Assembly: GCA_964016885.1 (NCBI GenBank)
Contig: OZ024747.1
Span: 71,238,001-71,302,000 of the forward strand
Source: Eledone cirrhosa
Lineage: Eukaryota
Length of the DNA stretch: 64,000 nt
Reading direction: 5' to 3'
Shown here piece after piece: positions 28,347 to 62,108 of this stretch. The notes below the pieces were generated by a model. The model was not told the origin of the DNA. It ran no database searches and saw only the letters and a list, made by a program, of their open reading frames with translations. A program made the translations under genes and the position numbers. Position 1 is the stretch's first letter. Each line of letters opens with the position of its first letter.

Positions 28347-28348
<2 letters not shown>

Positions 28349-37150: not shown

Positions 37151-37185
<35 letters not shown>

Positions 37186-40400: not shown

Positions 40401-40869
40401 CCGCTAATCCCACACAGTCCCAGCGTGCATCTAAGATCCCGTTCCAGTCGCCCACTAACACTAAAGAGCGGGACGTTCCAAGAAAGGTCTCCAGACGCCG
40501 GAAGAAATCAGGCCGCCCTGCTCCTGTCGGGGCATAGACGGCCACTAGCCTGAAAGCTTGCCCGTCTCCGCTGGTCACGTCCAGCACCACCAGCTTACCC
40601 TCTGGGTCCAGGAAGATGGCCCGTATGGCGAGATCCAAACCTCTCCGAAAAAGCACAGCAACTCCTCCACCGGATCCAGGACGGCTGGGAGATGCGTACA
40701 CATCGTAGCCGCCGAAGATCGGTGCGAAGGCCCGTGCTTCGGAGATTCTGGTCTCGCTGATGGCCACTACATCTATGTTTAGTGACCTGAGGTCGTTGAG
40801 CAGGTGACCCTGCTTCCATGACGACCCCAAGCCACGCGCATTTATGCTGCCTATTCTGAGTGAGGTCAT
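37445..40869 (-). pseudogene. ORF2 with a nonsense codon (TGG to TGA at 37792-37794) and a 5-bp CCTAA duplication near 37755
   Basis: 1025-aa ORF plus a separate 116-aa C-terminal piece, compared with 1139 aa in the other copies. Confidence 0.9.
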
Positions 40870-40904
40870 GTTTAAAATAGAGTGGAAAAGATGGGAAAGA
40901 CCAC

Positions 40905-43010: not shown

Positions 43011-43225
43011 GTTGTTTTTTGTTTAAAATGAAATTTTGGGTACAAAACCCCAATAACTGGTTATTTAACCCCGAAGGGCCAAATAACGGACAGAAAGACC
43101 CCTCTCACGAGGAGGAGGGTGTCTTTATAAACAATTTGGTTCAAGTTTTAAACAATTTACAATTGTTTTAACGGTTAAAAATTACTATACCTTACAGAGC
43201 CGAGCCTCCGTCAACCATGGCATTC

Positions 43226-43261
<36 letters not shown>

Positions 43262-43285
43262 AAAAATAAAAAAATTGAAAAAGAA

Positions 43286-43316
<31 letters not shown>

Positions 43317-43669
43317 CATACATATATACATACACACATACATACACATACACACACACATATACACACACACATACATTAATAACAATACTAATAATAA
43401 TAATAATGATTTCTTTATTAACCACAAGGGTTTACATAAAGTAGACATTAAGGACAGTGCAGGACAATGCAGGACGGTACAAATGGGCATTTCTGCGTGT
43501 AAAAAAACAAAAATAGAGGATGTAACAAAAATAACAATGAAAATAACAATGAAAAATTCCCCAATAGGGGGGAGACTTCGGAGGGACATTTGTGGAGAAA
43601 GCCCAGTAAAAAGCCACAATGACCCTGACCACCAAGGCAAGTGCCCTCTCCCAGTTTTCCACCTTTAGT

Positions 43670-46600
43670 TTACAGATATATACTCAGAGTCGGCCCATTC
43701 ACTCGGGCCATTCTTGCTTCTCTCACCCATCTTTCAACAAAATGCTGGGAAGAGAGCACTTCCTTCTCTACTCTGATTTTCCTTTTCAAATGAAATTTGA
43801 AAAAGTCAATCAGAGCATCACCGAAGAGGTAAGTGCTCGTCTTCAGCCCTTTCAAACGTGTCCACCATACTATCTCTTTCGCCATGGCCACCAGACAGAT
43901 AAAAACTGCCTGCCCTTCCCGGCTAAAGGAGGAGGGCGGGGCAATCCTCACGATAGACTCAGATGATAGCTGGATCCGTCCTAAACGCGACAGCAGGTGT
44001 TCGACATAAACCCACAAGTCAGCAATTTTCGGACACTGGACGAGTGCGTGCAGGACGGTTTCGTCGCCCTGCGCGCATCTCGGACATGCCCGGCTGACGG
44101 CACCTCCATGCCTGTAGAGTTTATCCCGAACTGGCAAGGCTCCTCGGTAGCACTGCCAGGCCAGAGATTTCTGGAAGTTGTCCATAGGCCCTGGCCCGAA
44201 GGTTCTTCCGAAGAGATTGGCTAGTTGATTTTCGTCGACGCCTAGAGTTTCCCCAAGTACGTCGTCGCTCTTCCCCTCCACTAATCCTCTATAGAACGCC
44301 GAGGTGGAGTTTCCACCGATCACATTGCCCGATTGGTCGAGGGCTGTGAGCGCCTGAAGACATTCCAGTCTCCAGGCGCTCCCTCTCGGTCTTCGCTTGA
44401 CCCAGGACTGCAGCTCCGTCAAGGAAACGAGCTGGGGAAAAACGCGTCTAGCAAACGGCGACCACACCTGATCACCGTCGAGGAAGAGGTGGAGATGTCG
44501 TAGCCTGAGCGCGTGCCTGCGCATCATCAGCCACGGCATGCCCAGCCCTCCACGTAGCGGGTGTTGACAACAGATGGACCGCCTGACCATCGGAGCACGT
44601 CCCTTCCACAAAAAGCGAAAGAGCAAACGCTCCAGCGCAGTCAGGCGAGGCTTAGGACAAGGTACGACGGTTAGGCGGTAGCAGATGACAGACGCGATGT
44701 ACGCGTTAGCCACCTCCGCTCGACCTTTCAGGGATAGCTTCCTCTCCGCCCATTTCTGGGTGAGAGAAGCCACCCTGCTCGTCACCTCGTCCCAGTTTTT
44801 GTCCGTCTGGAGGTCCGGACCGAACCAGACCCCTAGCAATTTAACCGGTCCGTCCGTCCAGCGCCCGACGACGCTGTTGGACGGCATGGACCTGCCTCTC
44901 CAGGTGCCGAGCTGCAGGCCCACTGACTTTTCCTGGTTGATCATTGCTCCTGTCACCGCTTCGTATTCTCTTAGTGTAGTGCCGATCGCCTCGATGTGTT
45001 TGGCGTTCGACACCACTACGGTGACATCGTCCGCATATGCTGACACGGATCTTCCGCATCCTAGTTCGCGCGGGACTCCCCTCAACGTCTCCAGTTTGTG
45101 CAGTAATGGCTCGAGAGTCAATACGTACAAGAGGGACGAGAGGGGACATCCTTGGCGGACCGAGCGCATGATGTTGAACGGTTCCGACAGGTGACCGTTC
45201 ACTCTCACCACAGAGCAGATGTCGCTGTGCATGGCAGCGATCCAGCCTCTGAAGACGGGCCCAAAGCCAGCCGCCCTCAGGACTGCCGCTAGGTAACGAT
45301 GGTCGACCCTATCGAAAGCTTTCGACTGATCTAAATTGATCAAGGACCCACCCGTGCCAGGTTCCCTAGCTACCCTCTCTACGATGTATCGCATGAGGTG
45401 GAGGTTGTCGTGGATGGATCTGTCGGGAATGGCGCATGTCTGCGCCTCTCCCACCAGACCACCAACGACAAGCGCCAACCTCTTTGCTAGCACCTTGGCC
45501 AAAATCTTAAACTCTGTGTTTAGCAGAGTTATGGGCCGGAAATTGTCTATGTTATCCCCCTTGTTCGGATCCTTTCTCAGCAGTGCCACCGCTCCTCGGC
45601 TCACAGAACTGGGAATTCTCCCGTTCTGTTGCCAGTTGCAGTAGACGTCCGCCAAGAGGCCTCCGAACAAGTCTGGCATCTGTACGTAAAGTTCATAGGG
45701 CAGACCATCCAAACCAGGCGATTTACCCCTTGTGCAGCCAGTCATTGCCTCCCGTACTTCAGCGGCTGTTATCGGCTTTTCGCAACACTTCGCCTCAGTG
45801 GCCGAGAGCCGCGGCAGTCCGTCGAGGTAGACACTAAAGTCCATCCCTCTACCCGGCCCCCCGCTGCCCCCGAACAGCTGAGCGAAGTGTCGCTGAAAAG
45901 CTTCACACATTTGCCCGGGATCGAGTAGCATGCGCCCGTCGTGGTCCACCAAAGACCGGATCGTGGCTTTGTTGCCACGACGCGCCTCCGCCACTCGGGC
46001 CCATTGAACGGCTTTCGTCCCCTCGTGTCTGAGAGCACGCACCCTAGCTCTGACAACGCAGCCTTCGTGCTTTGCATTGAAGAATTGGTCAAGGGCCAAT
46101 TTCGCCGCAAGCACGTCGGTCGCAATGCCTTTGCTAAGCGCCTCGTCTAATTTTCTAACTAGTTCTCCCTCTGCTCTATTTTTCTCTATTGCTAAAGCCT
46201 TACTAAACCTAATCGATTCTATTCTAATCGCTCTTTTCAGAGCAAACCACCACTTGTTGTTGACGATGGCCCCCGTCAACGCCCGCTTAACTAGTTCGCT
46301 AATCCGGTCTCTGTAGGCCTTGCGCGCTGGTAAGGACGCGTTTAGCTTCCAGTAGCCGGGTCCTCGTCTATGAAGCCTATCTAAGTCAAGCACACAGATC
46401 ACGAATTTGTGGTCCGTGTAGCTGACTATCTTGAATTGTGGACAGCCTATGCTAGACCTATCTATTTCCCTACAAAATACTCTATCTAGATATGATCTGG
46501 ATGACCCTATGCGGTTTGTCCAAGTCCACATTGGCACATTCGGGAAATCCAATCGGTACCTGTCAGACAGTTCAAAACACCTGAGCAGGTTGGTGAGGCT

Positions 46601-47089
46601 CTTGCACCCTCCACCCCTATCCGCTAATCCCACACAGTCCCAGCGTGCATCTAAGATCCCGTTCCAGTCGCCCACTAACACTAAAGAGCGGGACGTTCCA
46701 AGAAAGGTCTCCAGACGCCGGAAGAAATCAGGCCGCCCTGCTCCTGTCGGGGCATAGACGGCCACTAGCCTGAAAGCTTGCCCGTCTCCGCTGGTCACGT
46801 CCAGCACCACCAGCTTACCCTCTGGGTCCAGGAAGATAGCCCGTATGGCGAGATCCAAACCTCTCCGAAAAAGCACAGCAACTCCTCCACCGGATCCAGG
46901 ACGGCTGGGAGATGCGTACACATCGAAGCCGCCGAAGATCGGTGCGAAGGCCCGTGCTTCGGAGATTCTGGTCTCGCTGATGGCCACTACATCTATGTTT
47001 AGTGACCTGAGGTCGTTGAGCAGGTGACCCTGCTTCCATGACGACCCCAAGCCACGCGCATTTATGCTGCCTATTCTGAGTGAGGTCAT
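43670..47089 (-). CDS. LINE ORF2: APE endonuclease, RT and C-terminal CCHC, 1139 aa
   Basis: NARGL, SET, GDWN, SYLD, TDH; KSPGLDG, FRPITLLN, DQSKAFDRV, RQGCPLS, YADD; RGGLG; CPRC..ETVLHALVQC. Confidence 0.96.
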   Translation of the reverse strand: MTSLRIGSINARGLGSSWKQGHLLNDLRSLNIDVVAISETRISEARAFAPIFGGFDVYASPSRPGSGGGVAVLFRRGLDLAIRAIFLDPEGKLVVLDVTSGDGQAFRLVAVYAPTGAGRPDFFRRLETFLGTSRSLVLVGDWNGILDARWDCVGLADRGGGCKSLTNLLRCFELSDRYRLDFPNVPMWTWTNRIGSSRSYLDRVFCREIDRSSIGCPQFKIVSYTDHKFVICVLDLDRLHRRGPGYWKLNASLPARKAYRDRISELVKRALTGAIVNNKWWFALKRAIRIESIRFSKALAIEKNRAEGELVRKLDEALSKGIATDVLAAKLALDQFFNAKHEGCVVRARVRALRHEGTKAVQWARVAEARRGNKATIRSLVDHDGRMLLDPGQMCEAFQRHFAQLFGGSGGPGRGMDFSVYLDGLPRLSATEAKCCEKPITAAEVREAMTGCTRGKSPGLDGLPYELYVQMPDLFGGLLADVYCNWQQNGRIPSSVSRGAVALLRKDPNKGDNIDNFRPITLLNTEFKILAKVLAKRLALVVGGLVGEAQTCAIPDRSIHDNLHLMRYIVERVAREPGTGGSLINLDQSKAFDRVDHRYLAAVLRAAGFGPVFRGWIAAMHSDICSVVRVNGHLSEPFNIMRSVRQGCPLSSLLYVLTLEPLLHKLETLRGVPRELGCGRSVSAYADDVTVVVSNAKHIEAIGTTLREYEAVTGAMINQEKSVGLQLGTWRGRSMPSNSVVGRWTDGPVKLLGVWFGPDLQTDKNWDEVTSRVASLTQKWAERKLSLKGRAEVANAYIASVICYRLTVVPCPKPRLTALERLLFRFLWKGRAPMVRRSICCQHPLRGGLGMPWLMMRRHALRLRHLHLFLDGDQVWSPFARRVFPQLVSLTELQSWVKRRPRGSAWRLECLQALTALDQSGNVIGGNSTSAFYRGLVEGKSDDVLGETLGVDENQLANLFGRTFGPGPMDNFQKSLAWQCYRGALPVRDKLYRHGGAVSRACPRCAQGDETVLHALVQCPKIADLWVYVEHLLSRLGRIQLSSESIVRIAPPSSFSREGQAVFICLVAMAKEIVWWTRLKGLKTSTYLFGDALIDFFKFHLKRKIRVEKEVLSSQHFVERWVREARMARVNGPTLSIYL

Positions 47090-47124
47090 GTTTAAAATAG
47101 AGTGGAAAAGATGGGAAAGACCAC

Positions 47125-49221
47125 TTACCGTACTTTTGGTAGAGGAGGGATGGTTTTTACATCCCTTTTCACTTGATCGTCTGGTGAAGGGACCGTTGAA
47201 TCGTCCCTTCGGCTGGTCGTCGGCTCTTCTAAGAGAATGTCTGAGTATACTCTTCGATTGATGGTTCCTCCTAGGTCCCTGAAATCACCAACTGCGTTGG
47301 GGAATTTCGTTTTAATATTTGTGTATTGTTTCTGTGCTATTTTTAGCAGTCTTATGTTAGTTGGCGTTTTGATTGGTGCTGGTATTATGTAGTCCTGTTG
47401 TGAAATGTCTGTGTGTTCAATTATGTAAGTCATTAGTTTCTTGTTGTGTGTATTTATTGCCGTGCATTTGTTTTTCTGGGGGTGGGGTGTGGTTCTGCTA
47501 TTTTCTTGTCGTTGTTGCTGGGTGTGTGTGTTTTGTTGTTGTGTTTGCGATGTTGGTGCTTGTGGTGGTGGTGTTGAAGGTGTTGTTGGCGGTGGGGTTG
47601 TCGCCGGTGGTGATGGTGGCGCTAGTGTGGGTGGTGATGGTGTTGGTGTTGTTGCTGCTGTGGGTCTCTTTGCAGTAGACTTTACCCTTTTCTCATTTCT
47701 TTCCTCACTTTTCAAAGGCGACGATGCGCTGCTTCTGCGTTTGTGCCTTCTTACGACCTTTTGCCATCTCTCTCCCACCTCACACTCCATGTCTGATTCT
47801 GTGAGGTCGGGGAGGGGTACCAACTCCACTCTTTCACTTGTTGTTGTTGGTGATGTTTGCACTGGAGTCTCTGTTGCAGCTGCATTTGGTATTGCTGTTG
47901 TTGTTGTTAGTATTTCCACTGCTGCTGCTGTTTTTGATTTCCGTGGAGTGGGTATGGGTGCCACGGGCCTATCGTTCCTGGTTGCCGCTTGTCCTGTTGC
48001 TGGTAGCCGTGGAGCCGGATTCGGAAGGAGGGGGGTTTTCTCCTTTCTCAGGGTCTTCTCGTTGCAGAAGGCCCTGAGGTGAGTCTTCGATCCACAGCGA
48101 AAGCATTTCGGGCGTTTGCCCTCAACACTTATGGGCAGTTGAGTGCCGTTATCGAAGTCTATCACATCCGGGATAGCTTCGATGCACTCCTGGTTGGTTT
48201 GGATTAGCATCTCAATGGAGGAGCCGACCCAATCTTCTCTTACTTTTTTCTGTACTTGCAGTACAGTTGTTTTGTCCTCGATTCCGACGAGGACAGACGC
48301 GGCCAGCCAAGAAGGGGTCATTCCGGGGGGGACGTGGGTCAGTTTGACCCTCACAATTTTTTGCCCGCAGTAGGAGGGCACCAACACCATTTCCTCGCTC
48401 CTTAGGGTCACTACTGATTGAGCCTTTGCCTCCTGGGGTGTGGCAAAAAGTACGTCTACGGTGGCGTATTTTTTGCCTCGGGTGATGTGCGTTTTCCTCT
48501 GCCACACAGACCCCAAGGCTTTTTGTATTTGGGCCTCTGTGGCTCTTTCCACCCTACGGGATTTTGTACTTACTGTACGGTACGTGACCGTACAGTGCTC
48601 TTGGGTTTCGAAAAAATTTTTCGCTGCCTTGCAGATTGCTCGGTGTCCGTTCTTTGTCACCATCTTCTTCGCTTCCTCTAATTCCTCATTTGTTATGAGG
48701 ATTGTTTCCAGGTTTTTCGCAATACCTGCAAATGAGATTGGTTTTTCTCTGCTGTTGTTGTTGTCGTCAGAGCTGCTGGTACTTTTGTTGTTGCTGCAGG
48801 TACTACGACTACTGCCTCCGCCGCTGTTGCTGTGGTTGTTGTTGGTGTTGCTGCTGCTAATGCTGTTGTTGTTTATGCTGCTGGTGATGCTGTTGCGGCT
48901 GCTACTGTTGTTTTCATTGTCACTGTTGCTGTTGTTATTACGGCTGCTACTGCTATTATTCCTGACGTCAGACGAATGAACTGGGTTTTCGTATTTCCCG
49001 CACACCTGTTTCGTCGCTGTCGTCGTCGTCGTGGAGAAACCTTGCACGCTTTGCACGAGACTTTTCTTTTCTTTCGTCACTTGCGAAAGAGAAGGGAGGG
49101 AGAGAGACACATTTAAAGAAGGGAGGGAGAGAGACAATCTTCTCTCTGCTGTAGTGATGATTGAGGAAGAAGAAGACGGAATGAGTGGGAGTGACGTATG
49201 AAATTTCTTTTTCGTAGCCAT
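47125..49221 (-). CDS. LINE ORF1, 698 aa
   Basis: As copy 1; 35-nt inter-ORF gap. Confidence 0.92.
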   Translation of the reverse strand: MATKKKFHTSLPLIPSSSSSIITTAERRLSLSLPSLNVSLSLPSLSQVTKEKKSLVQSVQGFSTTTTTATKQVCGKYENPVHSSDVRNNSSSSRNNNSNSDNENNSSSRNSITSSINNNSISSSNTNNNHSNSGGGSSRSTCSNNKSTSSSDDNNNSREKPISFAGIAKNLETILITNEELEEAKKMVTKNGHRAICKAAKNFFETQEHCTVTYRTVSTKSRRVERATEAQIQKALGSVWQRKTHITRGKKYATVDVLFATPQEAKAQSVVTLRSEEMVLVPSYCGQKIVRVKLTHVPPGMTPSWLAASVLVGIEDKTTVLQVQKKVREDWVGSSIEMLIQTNQECIEAIPDVIDFDNGTQLPISVEGKRPKCFRCGSKTHLRAFCNEKTLRKEKTPLLPNPAPRLPATGQAATRNDRPVAPIPTPRKSKTAAAVEILTTTTAIPNAAATETPVQTSPTTTSERVELVPLPDLTESDMECEVGERWQKVVRRHKRRSSASSPLKSEERNEKRVKSTAKRPTAATTPTPSPPTLAPPSPPATTPPPTTPSTPPPQAPTSQTQQQNTHTQQQRQENSRTTPHPQKNKCTAINTHNKKLMTYIIEHTDISQQDYIIPAPIKTPTNIRLLKIAQKQYTNIKTKFPNAVGDFRDLGGTINRRVYSDILLEEPTTSRRDDSTVPSPDDQVKRDVKTIPPLPKVR

Positions 49222-49436
49222 GTTGTTTTTTGTTTAAAATGAAATTTTGGGTACAAAACCCCAATAACTGGTTATTTAACCCCGAAGGGCCAAATAACGG
49301 ACAGAAAGACCCCTCTCACGAGGAGGAGGGTGTCTTTATAAACAATTTGGTTCAAGTTTTAAACAATTTACAATTGTTTTAACGGTTAAAAATTACTATA
49401 CCTTACAGAGCCGAGCCTCCGTCAACCATGGCATTC

Positions 49437-49472
<36 letters not shown>

Positions 49473-49496
49473 AAAAATAAAAAAATTGAAAAAGAA

Positions 49497-49527
<31 letters not shown>

Positions 49528-49896
49528 CATACATATATACATACACACATACATACACATACACACACACATATACACACACACATACATTAATAACGAT
49601 ACTAATAATAATAATAATAATAGCAATAATAATGATTTCTTTATTAACCACAAGGGTTTACATAAAGTAGACATTAAGGACAGTGCAGGACAATGCAGGA
49701 CGGTACAAATGGGCATTTCTGCGTGTAAAGAAAACAAAAATAGAGGATGTAACAAAAATAACAATGAAAATAACAATGAAAAATTCCCCAATAGGGGGGA
49801 GACTTCGGAGGGACATTTGTGGAGAAAGCCCAGTAAAAAGCCACAATGACCCTGACCACCAAGGCAAGTGCCCTCTCCCAGTTTTCCACCTTTAGT

Positions 49897-52800
49897 TTAC
49901 AGATATATACTCAGAGTCGGCCCATTCACTCGGGCCATTCTTGCTTCTCTCACCCATCTTTCAACAAAATGCTGGGAAGAGAGCACTTCCTTCTCTACTC
50001 TGATTTTCCTTTTCAAATGAAATTTGAAAAAGTCAATCAGAGCATCACCGAAGAGGTAAGTGCTCGTCTTCAGCCCTTTCAAACGTGTCCACCATACTAT
50101 CTCTTTCGCCATGGCCACCAGACAGATAAAAACTGCCTGCCCTTCCCGGCTAAAGGAGGAGGGCGGGGCAATCCTCACGATAGACTCAGATGATAGCTGG
50201 ATCCGTCCTAAACGCGACAGCAGGTGTTCGACATAAACCCACAAGTCAGCAATTTTCGGACACTGGACGAGTGCGTGCAGGACGGTTTCGTCGCCCTGCG
50301 CGCATCTCGGACATGCCCGGCTGACGGCACCTCCATGCCTGTAGAGTTTATCCCGAACTGGCAAGGCTCCTCGGTAGCACTGCCAGGCCAGAGATTTCTG
50401 GAAGTTGTCCATAGGCCCTGGCCCGAAGGTTCTTCCGAAGAGATTGGCTAGTTGATTTTCGTCGACGCCTAGAGTTTCCCCAAGTACGTCGTCGCTCTTC
50501 CCCTCCACTAATCCTCTATAGAACGCCGAGGTGGAGTTTCCACCGATCACATTGCCCGATTGGTCGAGGGCTGTGAGCGCCTGAAGACATTCCAGTCTCC
50601 AGGCGCTCCCTCTCGGTCTTCGCTTGACCCAGGACTGCAGCTCCGTCAAGGAAACGAGCTGGGGAAAAACGCGTCTAGCAAACGGCGACCACACCTGATC
50701 ACCGTCGAGGAAGAGGTGGAGATGTCGTAGCCTGAGCGCGTGCCTGCGCATCATCAGCCACGGCATGCCCAGCCCTCCACGTAGCGGGTGTTGACAACAG
50801 ATGGACCGCCTGACCATCGGAGCACGTCCCTTCCACAAAAAGCGAAAGAGCAAACGCTCCAGCGCAGTCAGGCGAGGCTTAGGACAAGGTACGACGGTTA
50901 GGCGGTAGCAGATGACAGACGCGATGTACGCGTTAGCCACCTCCGCTCGACCTTTCAGGGATAGCTTCCTCTCCGCCCATTTCTGGGTGAGAGAAGCCAC
51001 CCTGCTCGTCACCTCGTCCCAGTTTTTGTCCGTCTGGAGGTCCGGACCGAACCAGACCCCTAGCAATTTAACCGGTCCGTCCGTCCAGCGCCCGACGACG
51101 CTGTTGGACGGCATGGACCTGCCTCTCCAGGTGCCGAGCTGCAGGCCCACTGACTTTTCCTGGTTGATCATTGCTCCTGTCACCGCTTCGTATTCTCTTA
51201 GTGTAGTGCCGATCGCCTCGATGTGTTTGGCGTTCGACACCACTACGGTGACATCGTCCGCATATGCTGACACGGATCTTCCGCATCCTAGTTCGCGCGG
51301 GACTCCCCTCAACGTCTCCAGTTTGTGCAGTAATGGCTCGAGAGTCAATACGTACAAGAGGGACGAGAGGGGACATCCTTGGCGGACCGAGCGCATGATG
51401 TTGAACGGTTCCGACAGGTGACCGTTCACTCTCACCACAGAGCAGATGTCGCTGTGCATGGCAGCGATCCAGCCTCTGAAGACGGGCCCAAAGCCAGCCG
51501 CCCTCAGGACTGCCGCTAGGTAACGATGGTCGACCCTATCGAAAGCTTTCGACTGATCTAAATTGATCAAGGACCCACCCGTGCCAGGTTCCCTAGCTAC
51601 CCTCTCTACGATGTATCGCATGAGGTGGAGGTTGTCGTGGATGGATCTGTCGGGAATGGCGCATGTCTGCGCCTCTCCCACCAGACCACCAACGACAAGC
51701 GCCAACCTCTTTGCTAGCACCTTGGCCAAAATCTTAAACTCTGTGTTTAGCAGAGTTATGGGCCGGAAATTGTCTATGTTATCCCCCTTGTTCGGATCCT
51801 TTCTCAGCAGTGCCACCGCTCCTCGGCTCACAGAACTGGGAATTCTCCCGTTCTGTTGCCAGTTGCAGTAGACGTCCGCCAAGAGGCCTCCGAACAAGTC
51901 TGGCATCTGTACGTAAAGTTCATAGGGCAGACCATCCAAACCAGGCGATTTACCCCTTGTGCAGCCAGTCATTGCCTCCCTTACTTCAGCGGCTGTTATC
52001 GGCTTTTCGCAACACTTCGCCTCAGTGGCCGAGAGCCGCGGCAGTCCGTCGAGGTAGACACTAAAGTCCATCCCTCTACCCGGCCCCCCGCTGCCCCCGA
52101 ACAGCTGAGCGAAGTGTCGCTGAAAAGCTTCACACATTTGCCCGGGATCGAGTAGCATGCGCCCGTCGTGGTCCACCAAAGACCGGATCGTGGCTTTGTT
52201 GCCACGACGCGCCTCCGCCACTCGGGCCCATTGAACGGCTTTCGTCCCCTCGTGTCTGAGAGCACGCACCCTAGCTCTGACAACGCAGCCTTCGTGCTTT
52301 GCATTGAAGAATTGGTCAAGGGCCAATTTCGCCGCAAGCACGTCGGTCGCAATGCCTTTGCTAAGCGCCTCGTCTAATTTTCTAACTAGTTCTCCCTCTG
52401 CTCTATTTTTCTCTATTGCTAAAGCCTTACTAAACCTAATCGATTCTATTCTAATCGCTCTTTTCAGAGCAAACCACCACTTGTTGTTGACGATGGCCCC
52501 CGTCAACGCCCGCTTAACTAGTTCGCTAATCCGGTCTCTGTAGGCCTTGCGCGCTGGTAAGGACGCGTTTAGCTTCCAGTAGCCGGGTCCTCGTCTATGA
52601 AGCCTATCTAAGTCAAGCACACAGATCACGAATTTGTGGTCCGTGTAGCTGACTATCTTGAATTGTGGACAGCCTATGCTAGACCTATCTATTTCCCTAC
52701 AAAATACTCTATCTAGATATGATCTGGATGACCCTATGCGGTTTGTCCAAGTCCACATTGGCACATTCGGGAAATCCAATCGGTACCTGTCAGACAGTTC

Positions 52801-53316
52801 AAAACACCTGAGCAGGTTGGTGAGGCTCTTGCACCCTCCACCCCTATCCGCTAATCCCACACAGTCCCAGCGTGCATCTAAGATCCCGTTCCAGTCGCCC
52901 ACTAACACTAAAGAGCGGGACGTTCCAAGAAAGGTCTCCAGACGCCGGAAGAAATCAGGCCGCCCTGCTCCTGTCGGGGCATAGACGGCCACTAGCCTGA
53001 AAGCTTGCCCGTCTCCGCTGGTCACGTCCAGCACCACCAGCTTACCCTCTGGGTCCAGGAAGATAGCCCGTATGGCGAGATCCAAACCTCTCCGAAAAAG
53101 CACAGCAACTCCTCCACCGGATCCAGGACGGCTGGGAGATGCGTACACATCGAAGCCGCCGAAGATCGGTGCGAAGGCCCGTGCTTCGGAGATTCTGGTC
53201 TCGCTGATGGCCACTACATCTATGTTTAGTGACCTGAGGTCGTTGAGCAGGTGACCCTGCTTCCATGACGACCCCAAGCCACGCGCATTTATGCTGCCTA
53301 TTCTGAGTGAGGTCAT
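49897..53316 (-). CDS. LINE ORF2, 1139 aa
   Basis: Same motifs as copy 2. Confidence 0.96.
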   Translation of the reverse strand: MTSLRIGSINARGLGSSWKQGHLLNDLRSLNIDVVAISETRISEARAFAPIFGGFDVYASPSRPGSGGGVAVLFRRGLDLAIRAIFLDPEGKLVVLDVTSGDGQAFRLVAVYAPTGAGRPDFFRRLETFLGTSRSLVLVGDWNGILDARWDCVGLADRGGGCKSLTNLLRCFELSDRYRLDFPNVPMWTWTNRIGSSRSYLDRVFCREIDRSSIGCPQFKIVSYTDHKFVICVLDLDRLHRRGPGYWKLNASLPARKAYRDRISELVKRALTGAIVNNKWWFALKRAIRIESIRFSKALAIEKNRAEGELVRKLDEALSKGIATDVLAAKLALDQFFNAKHEGCVVRARVRALRHEGTKAVQWARVAEARRGNKATIRSLVDHDGRMLLDPGQMCEAFQRHFAQLFGGSGGPGRGMDFSVYLDGLPRLSATEAKCCEKPITAAEVREAMTGCTRGKSPGLDGLPYELYVQMPDLFGGLLADVYCNWQQNGRIPSSVSRGAVALLRKDPNKGDNIDNFRPITLLNTEFKILAKVLAKRLALVVGGLVGEAQTCAIPDRSIHDNLHLMRYIVERVAREPGTGGSLINLDQSKAFDRVDHRYLAAVLRAAGFGPVFRGWIAAMHSDICSVVRVNGHLSEPFNIMRSVRQGCPLSSLLYVLTLEPLLHKLETLRGVPRELGCGRSVSAYADDVTVVVSNAKHIEAIGTTLREYEAVTGAMINQEKSVGLQLGTWRGRSMPSNSVVGRWTDGPVKLLGVWFGPDLQTDKNWDEVTSRVASLTQKWAERKLSLKGRAEVANAYIASVICYRLTVVPCPKPRLTALERLLFRFLWKGRAPMVRRSICCQHPLRGGLGMPWLMMRRHALRLRHLHLFLDGDQVWSPFARRVFPQLVSLTELQSWVKRRPRGSAWRLECLQALTALDQSGNVIGGNSTSAFYRGLVEGKSDDVLGETLGVDENQLANLFGRTFGPGPMDNFQKSLAWQCYRGALPVRDKLYRHGGAVSRACPRCAQGDETVLHALVQCPKIADLWVYVEHLLSRLGRIQLSSESIVRIAPPSSFSREGQAVFICLVAMAKEIVWWTRLKGLKTSTYLFGDALIDFFKFHLKRKIRVEKEVLSSQHFVERWVREARMARVNGPTLSIYL

Positions 53317-53351
53317 GTTTAAAATAGAGTGGAAAAGATGGGAAAGACCAC

Positions 53352-55448
53352 TTACCGTACTTTTGGTAGAGGAGGGATGGTTTTTACATCCCTTTTCACT
53401 TGATCGTCTGGTGAAGGGACCGTTGAATCGTCCCTTCGGCTGGTCGTCGGCTCTTCTAAGAGAATGTCTGAGTATACTCTTCGATTGATGGTTCCTCCTA
53501 GGTCCCTGAAATCACCAACTGCGTTGGGGAATTTCGTTTTAATATTTGTGTATTGTTTCTGTGCTATTTTTAGCAGTCTTATGTTAGTTGGCGTTTTGAT
53601 TGGTGCTGGTATTATGTAGTCCTGTTGTGAAATGTCTGTGTGTTCAATTATGTAAGTCATTAGTTTCTTGTTGTGTGTATTTATTGCCGTGCATTTGTTT
53701 TTCTGGGGGTGGGGTGTGGTTCTGCTATTTTCTTGTCGTTGTTGCTGGGTGTGTGTGTTTTGTTGTTGTGTTTGCGATGTTGGTGCTTGTGGTGGTGGTG
53801 TTGAAGGTGTTGTTGGCGGTGGGGTTGTCGCCGGTGGTGATGGTGGCGCTAGTGTGGGTGGTGATGGTGTTGGTGTTGTTGCTGCTGTGGGTCTCTTTGC
53901 AGTAGACTTTACCCTTTTCTCATTTCTTTCCTCACTTTTCAAAGGCGACGATGCGCTGCTTCTGCGTTTGTGCCTTCTTACGACCTTTTGCCATCTCTCT
54001 CCCACCTCACACTCCATGTCTGATTCTGTGAGGTCGGGGAGGGGTACCAACTCCACTCTTTCACTTGTTGTTGTTGGTGATGTTTGCACTGGAGTCTCTG
54101 TTGCAGCTGCATTTGGTATTGCTGTTGTTGTTGTTAGTATTTCCACTGCTGCTGCTGTTTTTGATTTCCGTGGAGTGGGTATGGGTGCCACGGGCCTATC
54201 GTTCCTGGTTGCCGCTTGTCCTGTTGCTGGTAGCCGTGGAGCCGGATTCGGAAGGAGGGGGGTTTTCTCCTTTCTCAGGGTCTTCTCGTTGCAGAAGGCC
54301 CTGAGGTGAGTCTTCGATCCACAGCGAAAGCATTTCGGGCGTTTGCCCTCAACACTTATGGGCAGTTGAGTGCCGTTATCGAAGTCTATCACATCCGGGA
54401 TAGCTTCGATGCACTCCTGGTTGGTTTGGATTAGCATCTCAATGGAGGAGCCGACCCAATCTTCTCTTACTTTTTTCTGTACTTGCAGTACAGTTGTTTT
54501 GTCCTCGATTCCGACGAGGACAGACGCGGCCAGCCAAGAAGGGGTCATTCCGGGGGGGACGTGGGTCAGTTTGACCCTCACAATTTTTTGCCCGCAGTAG
54601 GAGGGCACCAACACCATTTCCTCGCTCCTTAGGGTCACTACTGATTGAGCCTTTGCCTCCTGGGGTGTGGCAAAAAGTACGTCTACGGTGGCGTATTTTT
54701 TGCCTCGGGTGATGTGCGTTTTCCTCTGCCACACAGACCCCAAGGCTTTTTGTATTTGGGCCTCTGTGGCTCTTTCCACCCTACGGGATTTTGTACTTAC
54801 TGTACGGTACGTGACCGTACAGTGCTCTTGGGTTTCGAAAAAATTTTTCGCTGCCTTGCAGATTGCTCGGTGTCCGTTCTTTGTCACCATCTTCTTCGCT
54901 TCCTCTAATTCCTCATTTGTTATGAGGATTGTTTCCAGGTTTTTCGCAATACCTGCAAATGAGATTGGTTTTTCTCTGCTGTTGTTGTTGTCGTCAGAGC
55001 TGCTGGTACTTTTGTTGTTGCTGCAGGTACTACGACTACTGCCTCCGCCGCTGTTGCTGTGGTTGTTGTTGGTGTTGCTGCTGCTAATGCTGTTGTTGTT
55101 TATGCTGCTGGTGATGCTGTTGCGGCTGCTACTGTTGTTTTCATTGTCACTGTTGCTGTTGTTATTACGGCTGCTACTGCTATTATTCCTGACGTCAGAC
55201 GAATGAACTGGGTTTTCGTATTTCCCGCACACCTGTTTCGTCGCTGTCGTCGTCGTCGTGGAGAAACCTTGCACGCTTTGCACGAGACTTTTCTTTTCTT
55301 TCGTCACTTGCGAAAGAGAAGGGAGGGAGAGAGACACATTTAAAGAAGGGAGGGAGAGAGACAATCTTCTCTCTGCTGTAGTGATGATTGAGGAAGAAGA
55401 AGACGGAATGAGTGGGAGTGACGTATGAAATTTCTTTTTCGTAGCCAT
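53352..55448 (-). CDS. LINE ORF1, 698 aa
   Basis: Same as copy 2. Confidence 0.92.
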   Translation of the reverse strand: MATKKKFHTSLPLIPSSSSSIITTAERRLSLSLPSLNVSLSLPSLSQVTKEKKSLVQSVQGFSTTTTTATKQVCGKYENPVHSSDVRNNSSSSRNNNSNSDNENNSSSRNSITSSINNNSISSSNTNNNHSNSGGGSSRSTCSNNKSTSSSDDNNNSREKPISFAGIAKNLETILITNEELEEAKKMVTKNGHRAICKAAKNFFETQEHCTVTYRTVSTKSRRVERATEAQIQKALGSVWQRKTHITRGKKYATVDVLFATPQEAKAQSVVTLRSEEMVLVPSYCGQKIVRVKLTHVPPGMTPSWLAASVLVGIEDKTTVLQVQKKVREDWVGSSIEMLIQTNQECIEAIPDVIDFDNGTQLPISVEGKRPKCFRCGSKTHLRAFCNEKTLRKEKTPLLPNPAPRLPATGQAATRNDRPVAPIPTPRKSKTAAAVEILTTTTAIPNAAATETPVQTSPTTTSERVELVPLPDLTESDMECEVGERWQKVVRRHKRRSSASSPLKSEERNEKRVKSTAKRPTAATTPTPSPPTLAPPSPPATTPPPTTPSTPPPQAPTSQTQQQNTHTQQQRQENSRTTPHPQKNKCTAINTHNKKLMTYIIEHTDISQQDYIIPAPIKTPTNIRLLKIAQKQYTNIKTKFPNAVGDFRDLGGTINRRVYSDILLEEPTTSRRDDSTVPSPDDQVKRDVKTIPPLPKVR

Positions 55449-55663
55449 GTTGTTTTTTGTTTAAAATGAAATTTTGGGTACAAAACCCCAATAACTGGTT
55501 ATTTAACCCCGAAGGGCCAAATAACGGACAGAAAGACCCCTCTCACGAGGAGGAGGGTGTCTTTATAAACAATTTGGTTCAAGTTTTAAACAATTTACAA
55601 TTGTTTTAACGGTTAAAAATTACTATACCTTACAGAGCCGAGCCTCCGTCAACCATGGCATTC

Positions 55664-55699
<36 letters not shown>

Positions 55700-55723
55700 A
55701 AAAATAAAAAAATTGAAAAAGAA

Positions 55724-55754
<31 letters not shown>

Positions 55755-56123
55755 CATACATATATACATACACACATACATACACATACACACACACATA
55801 TACACACACACATACATTAATAACGATACTAATAATAATAATAATAATAGCAATAATAATGATTTCTTTATTAACCACAAGGGTTTACATAAAGTAGACA
55901 TTAAGGACAGTGCAGGACAATGCAGGACGGTACAAATGGGCATTTCTGCGTGTAAAAAAAACAAAAATAGAGGATGTAACAAAAATAACAATGAAAATAA
56001 CAATGAAAAATTCCCCAATAGGGGGGAGACTTCGGAGGGACATTTGTGGAGAAAGCCCAGTAAAAAGCCACAATGACCCTGACCACCAAGGCAAGTGCCC
56101 TCTCCCAGTTTTCCACCTTTAGT

Positions 56124-59100
56124 TTACAGATATATACTCAGAGTCGGCCCATTCACTCGGGCCATTCTTGCTTCTCTCACCCATCTTTCAACAAAATGCT
56201 GGGAAGAGAGCACTTCCTTCTCTACTCTGATTTTCCTTTTCAAATGAAATTTGAAAAAGTCAATCAGAGCATCACCGAAGAGGTAAGTGCTCGTCTTCAG
56301 CCCTTTCAAACGTGTCCACCATACTATCTCTTTCGCCATGGCCACCAGGCAGATAAAAACTGCCTGCCCTTCCCGGCTAAAGGAGGAGGGCGGGGCAATC
56401 CTCACGATGGACTCAGATGATAGCCGGATCCGTCCTAAACGCGACAGCAGGTGTTCGACATAAACCCACAAGTCAGCAATTTTCGGACACTGGACGAGTG
56501 CGTGCAGGACGGTTTCGTCGCCCTGCGCGCATCTCGGACATGCCCGGCTGACGGCACCTCCATGCCTGTAGAGTTTATCCCGAACTGGCAAGGCTCCTCG
56601 GTAGCACTGCCAGGCCAGAGATTTCTGGAAGTTGTCCATAGGCCCTGGCCCGAAAGTTCTTCCGAAGAGATTGGCTAGTTGATTTTCGTCGACGCCTAGA
56701 GTTTCCCCAAGTACGTCGTCGCTCTTCCCCTCCACTAATCCTCTATAGAACGCCGAGGTGGAGTTTCCACCGATCACATTGCCCGATTGGTCGAGGGCTG
56801 TGAGCGCCTGAAGACATTCCAGTCTCCAGGCGCTCCCTCTCGGTCTTCGCTTGACCCAGGACTGCAGCTCCGTCAAGGAAACGAGCTGGGGAAAAACGCG
56901 TCTAGCAAACGGCGACCACACCTGATCACCGTCGAGGAAGAGGTGGAGATGTCGTAGCCTGAGCGCGTGCCTGCGCATCATCAGCCACGGCATGCCCAGC
57001 CCTCCACGTAGCGGGTGTTGACAACAGATGGACCGCCTGACCATCGGAGCACGTCCCTTCCACAAAAAGCGAAAGAGCAAACGCTCCAGCGCAGTCAGGC
57101 GAGGCTTAGGACAAGGTACGACGGTTAGGCGGTAGCAGATGACAGACGCGATGTACGCGTTAGCCACCTCCGCTCGACCTTTCAGGGATAGCTTCCTCTC
57201 CGCCCATTTCTGGGTGAGAGAAGCCACCCTGCTCGTCACCTCGTCCCAGTTTTTGTCCGTCTGGAGGTCCGGACCGAACCAGACCCCTAGCAATTTAACC
57301 GGTCCGTCCGTCCAGCGCCCGACGACGCTGTTGGACGGCATGGACCTGCCTCTCCAGGTGCCGAGCTGCAGGCCCACTGACTTTTCCTGGTTGATCATTG
57401 CTCCTGTCACCGCTTCGTATTCTCTTAGTGTAGTGCCGATCGCCTCGATGTGTTTGGCGTTCGACACCACTACGGTGACATCGTCCGCATATGCTGACAC
57501 GGATCTTCCGCATCCTAGTTCGCGCGGGACTCCCCTCAACGTCTCCAGTTTGTGCAGTAATGGCTCGAGAGTCAATACGTACAAGAGGGACGAGAGGGGA
57601 CATCCTTGGCGGACCGAGCGCATGATGTTGAACGGTTCCGACAGGTGACCGTTCACTCTCACCACAGAGCAGATGTCGCTGTGCATGGCAGCGATCCAGC
57701 CTCTGAAGACGGGCCCAAAGCCAGCCGCCCTCAGGACTGCCGCTAGGTAACGATGGTCGACCCTATCGAAAGCTTTCGACTGATCTAAATTGATCAAGGA
57801 CCCACCCGTGCCAGGTTCCCTAGCTACCCTCTCTACGATGTATCGCATGAGGTGGAGGTTGTCGTGGATGGATCTGTCGGGAATGGCGCATGTCTGCGCC
57901 TCTCCCACCAGACCACCAACGACAAGCGCCAACCTCTTTGCTAGCACCTTGGCCAAAATCTTAAACTCTGTGTTTAGCAGAGTTATGGGCCGGAAATTGT
58001 CTATGTTATCCCCCTTGTTCGGATCCTTTCTCAGCAGTGCCACCGCTCCTCGGCTCACAGAACTGGGAATTCTCCCGTTCTGTTGCCAGTTGCAGTAGAC
58101 GTCCGCCAAGAGGCCTCCGAACAAGTCTGGCATCTGTACGTAAAGTTCATAGGGCAGACCATCCAAACCAGGCGATTTACCCCTTGTGCAGCCAGTCATT
58201 GCCTCCCGTACTTCAGCGGCTGTTATCGGCTTTTCGCAACACTTCGCCTCAGTGGCCGAGAGCCGCGGCAGTCCGTCGAGGTAGACACTAAAGTCCATCC
58301 CTCTACCCGGCCCCCCGCTGCCCCCGAACAGCTGAGCGAAGTGTCGCTGAAAAGCTTCACACATTTGCCCGGGATCGAGTAGCATGCGCCCGTCGTGGTC
58401 CACCAAAGACCGGATCGTGGCTTTGTTGCCACGACGCGCCTCCGCCACTCGGGCCCATTGAACGGCTTTCGTCCCCTCGTGTCTGAGAGCACGCACCCTA
58501 GCTCTGACAACGCAGCCTTCGTGCTTTGCATTGAAGAATTGGTCAAGGGCCAATTTCGCCGCAAGCACGTCGGTCGCAATGCCTTTGCTAAGCGCCTCGT
58601 CTAATTTTCTAACTAGTTCTCCCTCTGCTCTATTTTTCTCTATTGCTAAAGCCTTACTAAACCTAATCGATTCTATTCTAATCGCTCTTTTCAGAGCAAA
58701 CCACCACTTGTTGTTGACGATGGCCCCCGTCAACGCCCGCTTAACTAGTTCGCTAATCCGGTCTCTGTAGGCCTTGCGCGCTGGTAAGGACGCGTTTAGC
58801 TTCCAGTAGCCGGGTCCTCGTCTATGAAGCCTATCTAAGTCAAGCACACAGATCACGAATTTGTGGTCCGTGTAGCTGACTATTTTGAATTGTGGACAGC
58901 CTATGCTAGACCTATCTATTTCCCTACAAAATACTCTATCTAGATATGATCTGGATGACCCTATGCGGTTTGTCCAAGTCCACATTGGCACATTCGGGAA
59001 ATCCAATCGGTACCTGTCAGACAGTTCAAAACACCTGAGCAGGTTGGTGAGGCTCTTGCACCCTCCACCCCTATCCGCTAATCCCACACAGTCCCAGCGT

Positions 59101-59543
59101 GCATCTAAGATCCCGTTCCAGTCGCCCACTAACACTAAAGAGCGGGACGTTCCAAGAAAGGTCTCCAGACGCCGGAAGAAATCAGGCCGCCCTGCTCCTG
59201 TCGGGGCATAGACGGCCACTAGCCTGAAAGCTTGCCCGTCTCCGCTGGTCACGTCCAGCACCACCAGCTTACCCTCTGGGTCCAGGAAGATAGCCCGTAT
59301 GGCGAGATCCAAACCTCTCCGAAAAAGCACAGCAACTCCTCCACCGGATCCAGGACGGCTGGGAGATGCGTACACATCGAAGCCGCCGAAGATCGGTGCG
59401 AAGGCCCGTGCTTCGGAGATTCTGGTCTCGCTGATGGCCACTACATCTATGTTTAGTGACCTGAGGTCGTTGAGCAGGTGACCCTGCTTCCATGACGACC
59501 CCAAGCCACGCGCATTTATGCTGCCTATTCTGAGTGAGGTCAT
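56124..59543 (-). CDS. LINE ORF2, 1139 aa
   Basis: Same motifs; carries the IRLSSE variant (IQLSSE in copies 2, 3 and 5). Confidence 0.96.
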   Translation of the reverse strand: MTSLRIGSINARGLGSSWKQGHLLNDLRSLNIDVVAISETRISEARAFAPIFGGFDVYASPSRPGSGGGVAVLFRRGLDLAIRAIFLDPEGKLVVLDVTSGDGQAFRLVAVYAPTGAGRPDFFRRLETFLGTSRSLVLVGDWNGILDARWDCVGLADRGGGCKSLTNLLRCFELSDRYRLDFPNVPMWTWTNRIGSSRSYLDRVFCREIDRSSIGCPQFKIVSYTDHKFVICVLDLDRLHRRGPGYWKLNASLPARKAYRDRISELVKRALTGAIVNNKWWFALKRAIRIESIRFSKALAIEKNRAEGELVRKLDEALSKGIATDVLAAKLALDQFFNAKHEGCVVRARVRALRHEGTKAVQWARVAEARRGNKATIRSLVDHDGRMLLDPGQMCEAFQRHFAQLFGGSGGPGRGMDFSVYLDGLPRLSATEAKCCEKPITAAEVREAMTGCTRGKSPGLDGLPYELYVQMPDLFGGLLADVYCNWQQNGRIPSSVSRGAVALLRKDPNKGDNIDNFRPITLLNTEFKILAKVLAKRLALVVGGLVGEAQTCAIPDRSIHDNLHLMRYIVERVAREPGTGGSLINLDQSKAFDRVDHRYLAAVLRAAGFGPVFRGWIAAMHSDICSVVRVNGHLSEPFNIMRSVRQGCPLSSLLYVLTLEPLLHKLETLRGVPRELGCGRSVSAYADDVTVVVSNAKHIEAIGTTLREYEAVTGAMINQEKSVGLQLGTWRGRSMPSNSVVGRWTDGPVKLLGVWFGPDLQTDKNWDEVTSRVASLTQKWAERKLSLKGRAEVANAYIASVICYRLTVVPCPKPRLTALERLLFRFLWKGRAPMVRRSICCQHPLRGGLGMPWLMMRRHALRLRHLHLFLDGDQVWSPFARRVFPQLVSLTELQSWVKRRPRGSAWRLECLQALTALDQSGNVIGGNSTSAFYRGLVEGKSDDVLGETLGVDENQLANLFGRTFGPGPMDNFQKSLAWQCYRGALPVRDKLYRHGGAVSRACPRCAQGDETVLHALVQCPKIADLWVYVEHLLSRLGRIRLSSESIVRIAPPSSFSREGQAVFICLVAMAKEIVWWTRLKGLKTSTYLFGDALIDFFKFHLKRKIRVEKEVLSSQHFVERWVREARMARVNGPTLSIYL

Positions 59544-59578
59544 GTTTAAAATAGAGTGGAAAAGATGGGAAAGACCAC

Positions 59579-61675
59579 TTACCGTACTTTTGGTAGAGGA
59601 GGGATGGTTTTTACATCCCTTTTCACTTGATCGTCTGGTGAAGGGACCGTTGAATCGTCCCTTCGGCTGGTCGTCGGCTCTTCTAAGAGAATGTCTGAGT
59701 ATACTCTTCGATTGATGGTTCCTCCTAGGTCCCTGAAATCACCAACTGCGTTGGGGAATTTCGTTTTAATATTTGTGTATTGTTTCTGTGCTATTTTTAG
59801 CAGTCTTATGTTAGTTGGCGTTTTGATTGGTGCTGGTATTATGTAGTCCTGTTGTGAAATGTCTGTGTGTTCAATTATGTAAGTCATTAGTTTCTTGTTG
59901 TGTGTATTTATTGCCGTGCATTTGTTTTTCTGGGGGTGGGGTGTGGTTCTGCTATTTTCTTGTCGTTGTTGCTGGGTGTGTGTGTTTTGTTGTTGTGTTT
60001 GCGATGTTGGTGCTTGTGGTGGTGGTGTTGAAGGTGTTGTTGGCGGTGGGGTTGTCGCCGGTGGTGATGGTGGCGCTAGTGTGGGTGGTGATGGTGTTGG
60101 TGTTGTTGCTGCTGTGGGTCTCTTTGCAGTAGACTTTACCCTTTTCTCATTTCTTTCCTCACTTTTCAAAGGCGACGATGCGCTGCTTCTGCGTTTGTGC
60201 CTTCTTACGACCTTTTGCCATCTCTCTCCCACCTCACACTCCATGTCTGATTCTGTGAGGTCGGGGAGGGGTACCAACTCCACTCTTTCACTTGTTGTTG
60301 TTGGTGATGTTTGCACTGGAGTCTCTGTTGCAGCTGCATTTGGTATTGCTGTTGTTGTTGTTAGTATTTCCACTGCTGCTGCTGTTTTTGATTTCCGTGG
60401 AGTGGGTATGGGTGCCACGGGCCTATCGTTCCTGGTTGCCGCTTGTCCTGTTGCTGGTAGCCGTGGAGCCGGATTCGGAAGGAGGGGGGTTTTCTCCTTT
60501 CTCAGGGTCTTCTCGTTGCAGAAGGCCCTGAGGTGAGTCTTCGATCCACAGCGAAAGCATTTCGGGCGTTTGCCCTCAACACTTATGGGCAGTTGAGTGC
60601 CGTTATCGAAGTCTATCACATCCGGGATAGCTTCGATGCACTCCTGGTTGGTTTGGATTAGCATCTCAATGGAGGAGCCGACCCAATCTTCTCTTACTTT
60701 TTTCTGTACTTGCAGTACAGTTGTTTTGTCCTCGATTCCGACGAGGACAGACGCGGCCAGCCAAGAAGGGGTCATTCCGGGGGGGACGTGGGTCAGTTTG
60801 ACCCTCACAATTTTTTGCCCGCAGTAGGAGGGCACCAACACCATTTCCTCGCTCCTTAGGGTCACTACTGATTGAGCCTTTGCCTCCTGGGGTGTGGCAA
60901 AAAGTACGTCTACGGTGGCGTATTTTTTGCCTCGGGTGATGTGCGTTTTCCTCTGCCACACAGACCCCAAGGCTTTTTGTATTTGGGCCTCTGTGGCTCT
61001 TTCCACCCTACGGGATTTTGTACTTACTGTACGGTACGTGACCGTACAGTGCTCTTGGGTTTCGAAAAAATTTTTCGCTGCCTTGCAGATTGCTCGGTGT
61101 CCGTTCTTTGTCACCATCTTCTTCGCTTCCTCTAATTCCTCATTTGTTATGAGGATTGTTTCCAGGTTTTTCGCAATACCTGCAAATGAGATTGGTTTTT
61201 CTCTGCTGTTGTTGTTGTCGTCAGAGCTGCTGGTACTTTTGTTGTTGCTGCAGGTACTACGACTACTGCCTCCGCCGCTGTTGCTGTGGTTGTTGTTGGT
61301 GTTGCTGCTGCTAATGCTGTTGTTGTTTATGCTGCTGGTGATGCTGTTGCGGCTGCTACTGTTGTTTTCATTGTCACTGTTGCTGTTGTTATTACGGCTG
61401 CTACTGCTATTATTCCTGACGTCAGACGAATGAACTGGGTTTTCGTATTTCCCGCACACCTGTTTCGTCGCTGTCGTCGTCGTCGTGGAGAAACCTTGCA
61501 CGCTTTGCACGAGACTTTTCTTTTCTTTCGTCACTTGCGAAAGAGAAGGGAGGGAGAGAGACACATTTAAAGAAGGGAGGGAGAGAGACAATCTTCTCTC
61601 TGCTGTAGTGATGATTGAGGAAGAAGAAGACGGAATGAGTGGGAGTGACGTATGAAATTTCTTTTTCGTAGCCAT
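59579..61675 (-). CDS. LINE ORF1, 698 aa
   Basis: Same as copy 2. Confidence 0.92.
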   Translation of the reverse strand: MATKKKFHTSLPLIPSSSSSIITTAERRLSLSLPSLNVSLSLPSLSQVTKEKKSLVQSVQGFSTTTTTATKQVCGKYENPVHSSDVRNNSSSSRNNNSNSDNENNSSSRNSITSSINNNSISSSNTNNNHSNSGGGSSRSTCSNNKSTSSSDDNNNSREKPISFAGIAKNLETILITNEELEEAKKMVTKNGHRAICKAAKNFFETQEHCTVTYRTVSTKSRRVERATEAQIQKALGSVWQRKTHITRGKKYATVDVLFATPQEAKAQSVVTLRSEEMVLVPSYCGQKIVRVKLTHVPPGMTPSWLAASVLVGIEDKTTVLQVQKKVREDWVGSSIEMLIQTNQECIEAIPDVIDFDNGTQLPISVEGKRPKCFRCGSKTHLRAFCNEKTLRKEKTPLLPNPAPRLPATGQAATRNDRPVAPIPTPRKSKTAAAVEILTTTTAIPNAAATETPVQTSPTTTSERVELVPLPDLTESDMECEVGERWQKVVRRHKRRSSASSPLKSEERNEKRVKSTAKRPTAATTPTPSPPTLAPPSPPATTPPPTTPSTPPPQAPTSQTQQQNTHTQQQRQENSRTTPHPQKNKCTAINTHNKKLMTYIIEHTDISQQDYIIPAPIKTPTNIRLLKIAQKQYTNIKTKFPNAVGDFRDLGGTINRRVYSDILLEEPTTSRRDDSTVPSPDDQVKRDVKTIPPLPKVR

Positions 61676-61890
61676 GTTGTTTTTTGTTTAAAATGAAATT
61701 TTGGGTACAAAACCCCAATAACTGGTTATTTAACCCCGAAGGGCCAAATAACGGACAGAAAGACCCCTCTCACGAGGAGGAGGGTGTCTTTATAAACAAT
61801 TTGGTTCAAGTTTTAAACAATTTACAATTGTTTTAACGGTTAAAAATTACTATACCTTACAGAGCCGAGCCTCCGTCAACCATGGCATTC

Positions 61891-61926
<36 letters not shown>

Positions 61927-61950
61927 AAAAATAAAAAAATTGAAAAAGAA

Positions 61951-61981
<31 letters not shown>

Positions 61982-62108
61982 CATACATATATACATACAC
62001 ACATACATACACATACACACACACATATACACACACACATACATTAATAACGATACTAATAATAATAATAATAATAGCAATAATAATAATAACGACAACA
62101 ACAATAAT

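Follow-up and report, generated by a model that had tools for sequence, protein, structure and literature searches.

A 64,000-bp stretch of the Eledone cirrhosa genome (assembly GCA_964016885.1, contig OZ024747.1, positions 71,238,001 to 71,302,000), hereafter the window, contains five head-to-tail copies of a Tx1-like long interspersed nuclear element (LINE) on the minus strand. Each copy is ~6.03 kb long (unit 5 runs past the end of the window), and neighboring copies are separated by a composite microsatellite spacer. With somewhat more confidence than doubt, the array is proposed to result from a double insertion into one host microsatellite, followed by unequal recombination that amplified a chimeric unit. 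The array is thereby mainly explained by a known route, apart from one feature, a 3′ polarity in the differences among units. Positions below are those of the window (Table 1).

The four spacers, at junctions 1 to 4 (J1–J4), measure 182, 197, 197 and 218 bp, respectively. In agreement with an earlier reading of the letters by a model (the sequence-only reading), all four carry the same cassette. The leading 161 bp, including an (AAT)9 and a (TA)13 tract without length change, are the same in each. An A-rich 17-mer is found four times on the plus strand of the window, once per junction, and hence not by chance. As also described in that reading, the leftmost tail (37116–37183) lacks the cassette, and the spacers differ where they meet the 3′ terminus of the next unit; besides the stop points, the differences at this end comprise one A/G change in J1. 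The right end of J1 falls after five AAT of the first tract, that of J2 and J3 after AGC and three AAT, and that of J4 after the AAC/GAC block and two AAT, so that each of the three distinct stop points lies inside an AAT tract. J1 retains five of the six AAT of the host tract (43403–43410) and J2 and J3 retain three of four (49629–49636); in both cases the first triplet of the element replaces the last AAT. In three details the description is corrected: the A-rich part had been written with one A6T block too few, J2 exceeds J1 by 15 bp, an additional AAT among them, rather than by 12 bp, and J1 carries the A/G substitution and is not a pure prefix of the longer junctions. The left-to-right length order was rejected as a signal, as it is one of 12 orderings (two of 12 counting both directions). 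Also rejected was 3′ transduction, which predicts a fixed end at the 3′ terminus and a variable far end, the reverse of the observed arrangement.

The source of the spacer is indicated by an element-free paralog of the target locus. The 45-bp core to the left of unit 1 (37071–37115) recurs at 33573–33617 with 97.8% identity (one mismatch), and a third copy, with 85% identity, is located at 35635. At 33.6 kb, the core is followed not by an element, but by the TA/CA mix, AAT tracts and the AAC/GAC block. Unit 1 and the initial 55 bp of spacer are flanked by a 7-bp direct repeat (37114–37120 and 43281–43287). When the left flank and J4 are joined at this repeat, they align colinearly with the paralog at 33573–33719: the TA/CA mix of the paralog is 50 bp shorter, there is a 6-bp gap, and the last 57 bp contain two mismatches. 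In a search of both strands, the 19-mer at the end of J4 was found at just 33701 and 62088. Because the paralog joins the flank of unit 1 straight to the cassette, the spacer from 43281 onward is, on this alignment, host DNA that is native to the insertion site and was split off by unit 1. Like the junction DNA of R1-type arrays, this part derives from the target locus. The first 55 bp (43226–43280) may represent one half of a pre-existing A-rich tract into which unit 1 inserted or, alternatively, may have arrived with unit 1; both sides of unit 1 grade from A-rich sequence into AAT. Since the paralog shows the host locus in the long form of J4, J1–J3 are shorter cuts. The nesting of J1 within J2/J3 and of these within J4, as first described, is thus retained, but its direction is not: J4 is not an addition. 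Slippage expansion as the origin of J4 was rejected, as its extra letters are present in the paralog.

Two lineages of the element are represented in the array. Unit 1 differs from units 2, 3 and 4 by 62, 61 and 61 substitutions, respectively (~1% over the 3′ 5.35 kb), and units 2–5 differ among themselves by 1–7. Between units 1 and 2, each of the two open reading frames (ORFs) has 15 synonymous and 15 non-synonymous changes, and the ratios of non-synonymous to synonymous change (pN/pS) of 0.32 and 0.30 imply that these differences mostly built up in active lineages. As for independently inserted founders of an R1-type array, we infer from the 62 substitutions and these ratios that units 1 and 2 descend from two separate insertions of different source lineages, alpha and beta. 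The last 734 alignment columns contain none of the 62 substitutions (P = 3e-4 if the gap has to be terminal, and 0.019 if a gap of this size may lie anywhere). In units 1–4, a 9-bp indel ending at 42537 precedes a shared block of 688 bp, which continues without change into the spacer. Constraint is an unlikely cause of this identity because the low-complexity beginning of ORF1 lies within the block. A plain duplication of unit 1 was rejected on the basis of the pN/pS of 0.3 and the sharp boundary. For 40 of 188 variant rows, alleles were compared in contigs of two sequence runs, X1 and X4, whose organisms are not known to be that of the window. Twenty-five of the 40 listed variants are private to unit 1, and 19 of these have the other allele at ≥98% of X1 depth. 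Fourteen are array-wide and located in the 3′ part, one of them with the other allele at ≥98% of X1 depth. The remaining variant, at 43129, lies within the shared block; there the other allele reaches 100%, and this single site hints that the shared 5′ end belongs to the lineage of unit 1.

Units 2–4 are all full length (6029–6030 bp). In contrast, in run X1 the LINE family is strongly 3′-biased and mostly truncated: contig depth is 5–9e5 over ORF2 and ~1e5 over ORF1 (summed contig depth, not copy number). For comparison, a cluster at 16614–30157 (also delimited as 16614–30183) contains five pieces of a second, plus-strand, AAT-flanked reverse transcriptase (RT) element, which start at query positions 1, 1, 639, 1675 and 3172 and are 93–99.4% identical to the first piece. 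With its mixed lengths and ages, which PMC5932611 describes as expected of separate insertions, this cluster looks to have been built in that manner. The equal, full-length units of the array in a 3′-biased family argue that the 5′ ends and spacers of the array were likely copied from DNA. The second element, which may be R4/Dong-like, has a 1030-amino acid ORF with an RT match and no APE match, as well as AAT/AAC tails; some of its pieces are joined directly to the previous tail.

In the favored explanation, an alpha copy would first insert in the left AAT tract of the host cassette, and a beta copy in a right AAT tract, which would create a head-to-tail dimer with the host spacer trapped in between. 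A single unequal exchange, immediately 5′ of position 42537, would then yield a chimeric repeat unit, composed of the beta body, the shared 5′ end and the spacer, and more unequal exchange would expand it. The shorter junctions would be losses between neighboring AAT tracts, and the scattered 3′ differences would stem from gene conversion by other members of the family, perhaps at breaks made at the junction; this last step is the weakest. DNA-level exchange involving AAT tracts, one of two alternatives raised by the sequence-only reading, is close to this proposal, and its argument that the cassette could not result from separate insertions into random (AAT)n tracts is upheld. As described by McGurk and Barbash 2018 (PMC5932611), the identical junctions of the Drosophila R1 array on the X chromosome arose by double insertion and unequal exchange, and junction deletions are reported there for hobo tandems. 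As in the R1 array described in that text, full-length units lacking long terminal repeats stand head-to-tail with an identical piece of the target locus between them, and target preference favors the founding dimer. Unlike R1, for which the same text gives a 33-nucleotide target duplication, the DNA between units is here a host microsatellite of 182–218 bp between two different target tracts, the founders are ~1% apart and a chimeric unit is visible, the junctions form a nested length series, and the differences between units are concentrated at the 3′ end. A single amplified R1-type junction agrees with the identity of the first 161 bp in four of four junctions and with J2 = J3, yet there are three different right ends.

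Several observations weigh against this explanation. All seven differences among units 2–4 lie in the 3′ half, and five of the seven are in the 3′-most 800 of 6044 columns (P = 7e-4); with a homopolymer site dropped, the count is four of six (P = 4e-3). The (TA)13 and (AAT)9 lengths are unchanged in four of four spacers. This pattern counts against plain unequal exchange with slippage, because that model predicts the opposite: a pure (TA)13 tract would be expected to slip many times before several substitutions accumulate per 6 kb. The alpha-like alleles of unit 4 (columns 549, 565 and 800) do not form a continuous tract from unit 1, whose alleles at columns 574–578, 611, 614 and 791 are absent from unit 4. 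The cassette match of the paralog is of low complexity and, for the right end of J4, scores 89, the highest of the non-array loci, versus 83 for the next two non-array AAT loci; the match is given weight because the cassette stands directly behind the paralogous core and in the right order. Finally, no empty-site joint is present among the 15 joints listed for the X1 and X4 contigs, with repeat zones skipped, and neither is a joint from the spacer to a 3′ end. In favor of the explanation, five of the ten site pairs examined in a four-gamete test show all four gametes, and the units have therefore exchanged sequence. Based on the 3′ crowding, the non-contiguous haplotypes and the unchanged (TA)13, the differences among units 2–4 look to have been imported at or near the 3′ junction instead of accumulated. 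The importing process can be gene conversion with junction deletions, repeated insertion finished on a neighbor, or assembly mixing.

The second of these processes is considered a possible, but clearly less probable, origin for the array as a whole. Here, target-primed reverse transcription would begin at a host AAT tract next to the resident copy, and the complementary DNA (cDNA) would invade the adjacent copy and copy its 5′ end and spacer, with the result that every cycle yields one more full-length unit with a new 3′ junction and restores the spacer and target. Truncated cDNAs would thereby become full-length, intact units. Such completion would account for the three breakpoints, all of them AAT tracts at a 3′ end, for the position of seven of seven differences in the 3′ half and five of seven within 800 bp of the junction, for the non-contiguous haplotypes and unchanged (TA)13, and for full-length units in a mostly truncated family. 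The presence of both alleles of column 2353 in X1 (83%/17%) and the other multiply hit microsatellites in the window are also in line with it. Single-event precedents exist. Six Zorro3 insertions underwent recombination with an endogenous copy at a distance of 40 bp to 115 kb (PMC1965478), and L1 cDNA copies nearby templates (<250 bp; 10.1101/2024.08.27.596794). As here proposed, a new insertion in these cases acquires its 5′ end from a nearby resident copy or uses neighboring genomic DNA as a template, but the events described occurred singly and were mostly deletions or short stretches of templated sequence, and same-orientation Zorro3 events presumably deleted the interval rather than duplicating it. 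No precedent for array-building by cDNA completion, or for AAT-spaced LINE arrays, was found in the literature searched, which was of partial coverage with few subscription papers. Furthermore, completion on a neighbor requires at least four very recent insertions at one 200-bp site, all resolved alike, the identity of J2 and J3 is more cheaply explained by one duplication, and the signal is carried by just seven variable sites. The suggestion of the sequence-only reading that priming took place in a different tract at every junction would survive, doubtfully, only in this changed form, with priming at host tracts and the 5′ end completed on the neighbor.

Assembly is an improbable source of part of the copy number, the mosaic differences or the uniformity of microsatellite length, through haplotypes strung together or polishing across nearly identical units. 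Units 2–5 differ by just 1–7 substitutions, and the equal (TA)13 in four copies together with incompatible site patterns would fit polishing or haplotype mixing. However, the three junction forms are all clean truncations of a host sequence with an independent copy at 33.6 kb, and the ORFs of units 2–4 are all open. Copy number has no bearing on the host origin of the spacer or on the contrast between alpha and beta.

Very little probability is given to a leader model, in which transcripts would include the entire spacer as a 5′ leader, each new copy would bring this leader along, and the following copy would insert into it. In Drosophila, head-to-tail arrays of the LINE-like HeT-A carry variable short 5′ tags, which come from the 3′ end of the upstream element via the transcript. 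The present spacer differs from these tags in coming from host flank DNA. The nested ends in AAT tracts would be expected of a leader, and the 7-bp direct repeat encloses the first 55 bp with unit 1, so that the leader proposed in the sequence-only reading could hold for that part, as element-borne DNA. From 43281 onward, in contrast, the spacer continues the left flank of unit 1, as in the paralog, and is not DNA foreign to the site that was carried on a transcript. The model also leaves unexplained why units 2–4 have the 5′ 688 bp of unit 1, but not its body. X1 depth drops from 106,065 to 4,947 in the spacer bin and the listed X4 contig stops at 43216; both are weak points, as contigs break at repeats.

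The label Tx1-like is taken from the best named protein match among 15 homologs, a coral 'Transposon TX1 149 kDa protein' (32% identity over 714 amino acids); a homolog cluster look-up gave names for none of the three homologs tried. In unit 2, ORF2 (43670–47284, 1139 amino acids from Met) has Pfam matches to an N-terminal APE endonuclease (PF03372, 5.7e-14), RT (PF00078, 1.1e-28) and a C-terminal zinc finger, zf-RVT (PF13966, 7.9e-8), the domain set of the L1/Tx1 group, and its best PDB matches are human L1 ORF2p (E = 9e-52). The separate ORF1 (47125–49233, 698 amino acids from Met), also in keeping with that group, contains a C-x2-C-x4-H-x4-C knuckle, identified by eye, and has no Pfam match. 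Its top Atlas match is a CCHC cluster (score 0.93), a lead, as the family is on just 12% of cluster members. In unit 1, ORF2 is shortened to 1025 amino acids by a nonsense change, with a 5-bp insertion further on. All five 3′ ends in the window adjoin AAT tracts; these represent at least two insertions, not five demonstrably independent ones. Tx1-clade LINEs that target microsatellites, namely Kibi, Koshi and crocodilian Tx1, have (TC)n, (TTC)n and (TTCC)n targets according to PMC4494074, where a family is termed microsatellite-specific if >20% of copies are flanked by the same repeat. Like the elements described there, the array LINE has two ORFs, an APE-RT-zinc finger ORF2 and a CCHC ORF1, and its ends are embedded in a simple repeat. 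Unlike them, it has (AAT)n/(ATT)n as its target at this locus.

Table 1 Features of the LINE array and its surroundings in the 64-kb window.
Feature	Position	Strand	Description
Element-free paralog of target locus	33573–33719	+	45-bp unique core, TA/CA mix, AAT tracts, AAC/GAC block
Left flank of array	37071–37120	+	Unique core and left copy of 7-bp direct repeat (37114–37120)
A-rich/(AAT)n tract at unit 1 3′ end	37121–37183	+	Tail and/or target
Unit 1	37184–43225	−	Tx1-like LINE; probable separate source lineage (alpha)
Shared identical block	42538–43386	−	849 bp: 688 bp of element 5′ end and 161 bp of spacer; units 1–4/junctions 1–4
Junction 1	43226–43407	+	Host-derived part 43281–43407: right copy of 7-bp repeat, (TA)13, CATA/CA mix, end within first AAT tract
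Spacer left part	43226–43280	+	(AAT)9 and A-rich tract, within 7-bp direct repeat
Unit 2	43408–49436	−	Full length; ORF1 and ORF2 open; CCHC knuckle in ORF1
Junction 2	49437–49633	+	Ends within second AAT tract
Unit 3	49634–55663	−	Full length; ORF1 and ORF2 open
Junction 3	55664–55860	+	Same sequence as junction 2
Unit 4	55861–61890	−	Full length; ORF1 and ORF2 open; distinct 3′ haplotype
Junction 4	61891–62108	+	Longest; extends to last AAT of host cassette seen in paralog
Unit 5	62109–64000	−	3′ 1.9 kb only; window end cuts rest

Additional features were observed in the window. A head-to-tail pair at 8126–13400 is a diverged relative of the array element (69–71% identity), and its 3′ ends adjoin GATA-type repeats, not AAT, which may reflect a target switch and another double insertion. 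To the left of the array, a 389-bp direct repeat (35630–36012 and 36375–36763) stands beside (CATA)n, and its start is similar to the 45-bp core (85%); an inverted pair of 201 bp is located at 36011–36211 and 36768–36968. The bin at 36770–36991 has very high X1 depth, and is therefore a common repeat. Long inverted-repeat structures at 13498–13884 (87%) and 32010–32442 (96%) are flanked by (TA)n and resemble miniature inverted-repeat transposable elements. Two plus-strand frames of 242 and 145 amino acids lie at 14557–15691, the former with no Pfam match, and there are no Rfam matches in the window. Part of the array unit is contained in 20 of the 24 listed runs, with no RNA run among those listed as containing it. 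The raw Hi-C runs X22 and X23 have three and seven matching reads, respectively, all in low-complexity ORF1 sequence. Sequence nearly identical to 43700–49900 is present in contigs filed under 17 coded organisms (share 0.07–0.85), and none was found in the raw reads of organism I; close relatives, horizontal transfer and cross-contamination are alternative explanations for this spread. Among metagenome contigs, 34 pattern matches included no relatives, and viral contigs gave no matches.

If completion on a neighbor were the true origin, the array would represent a ratchet that couples retrotransposition to recombination, and its junctions would be a record of successive insertions. A mostly 5′-truncated LINE family would then mass-produce full-length, ORF-intact copies at one locus, and the nested junctions would provide a direct assay of LINE 5′ end joining in the germ line. 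Under the favored explanation, double insertion followed by unequal recombination, the array would be a well-preserved early stage in the transition from transposon to tandem array. It is useful, although the route is already known, as one window shows the empty target, both founder lineages and the recombination boundary.

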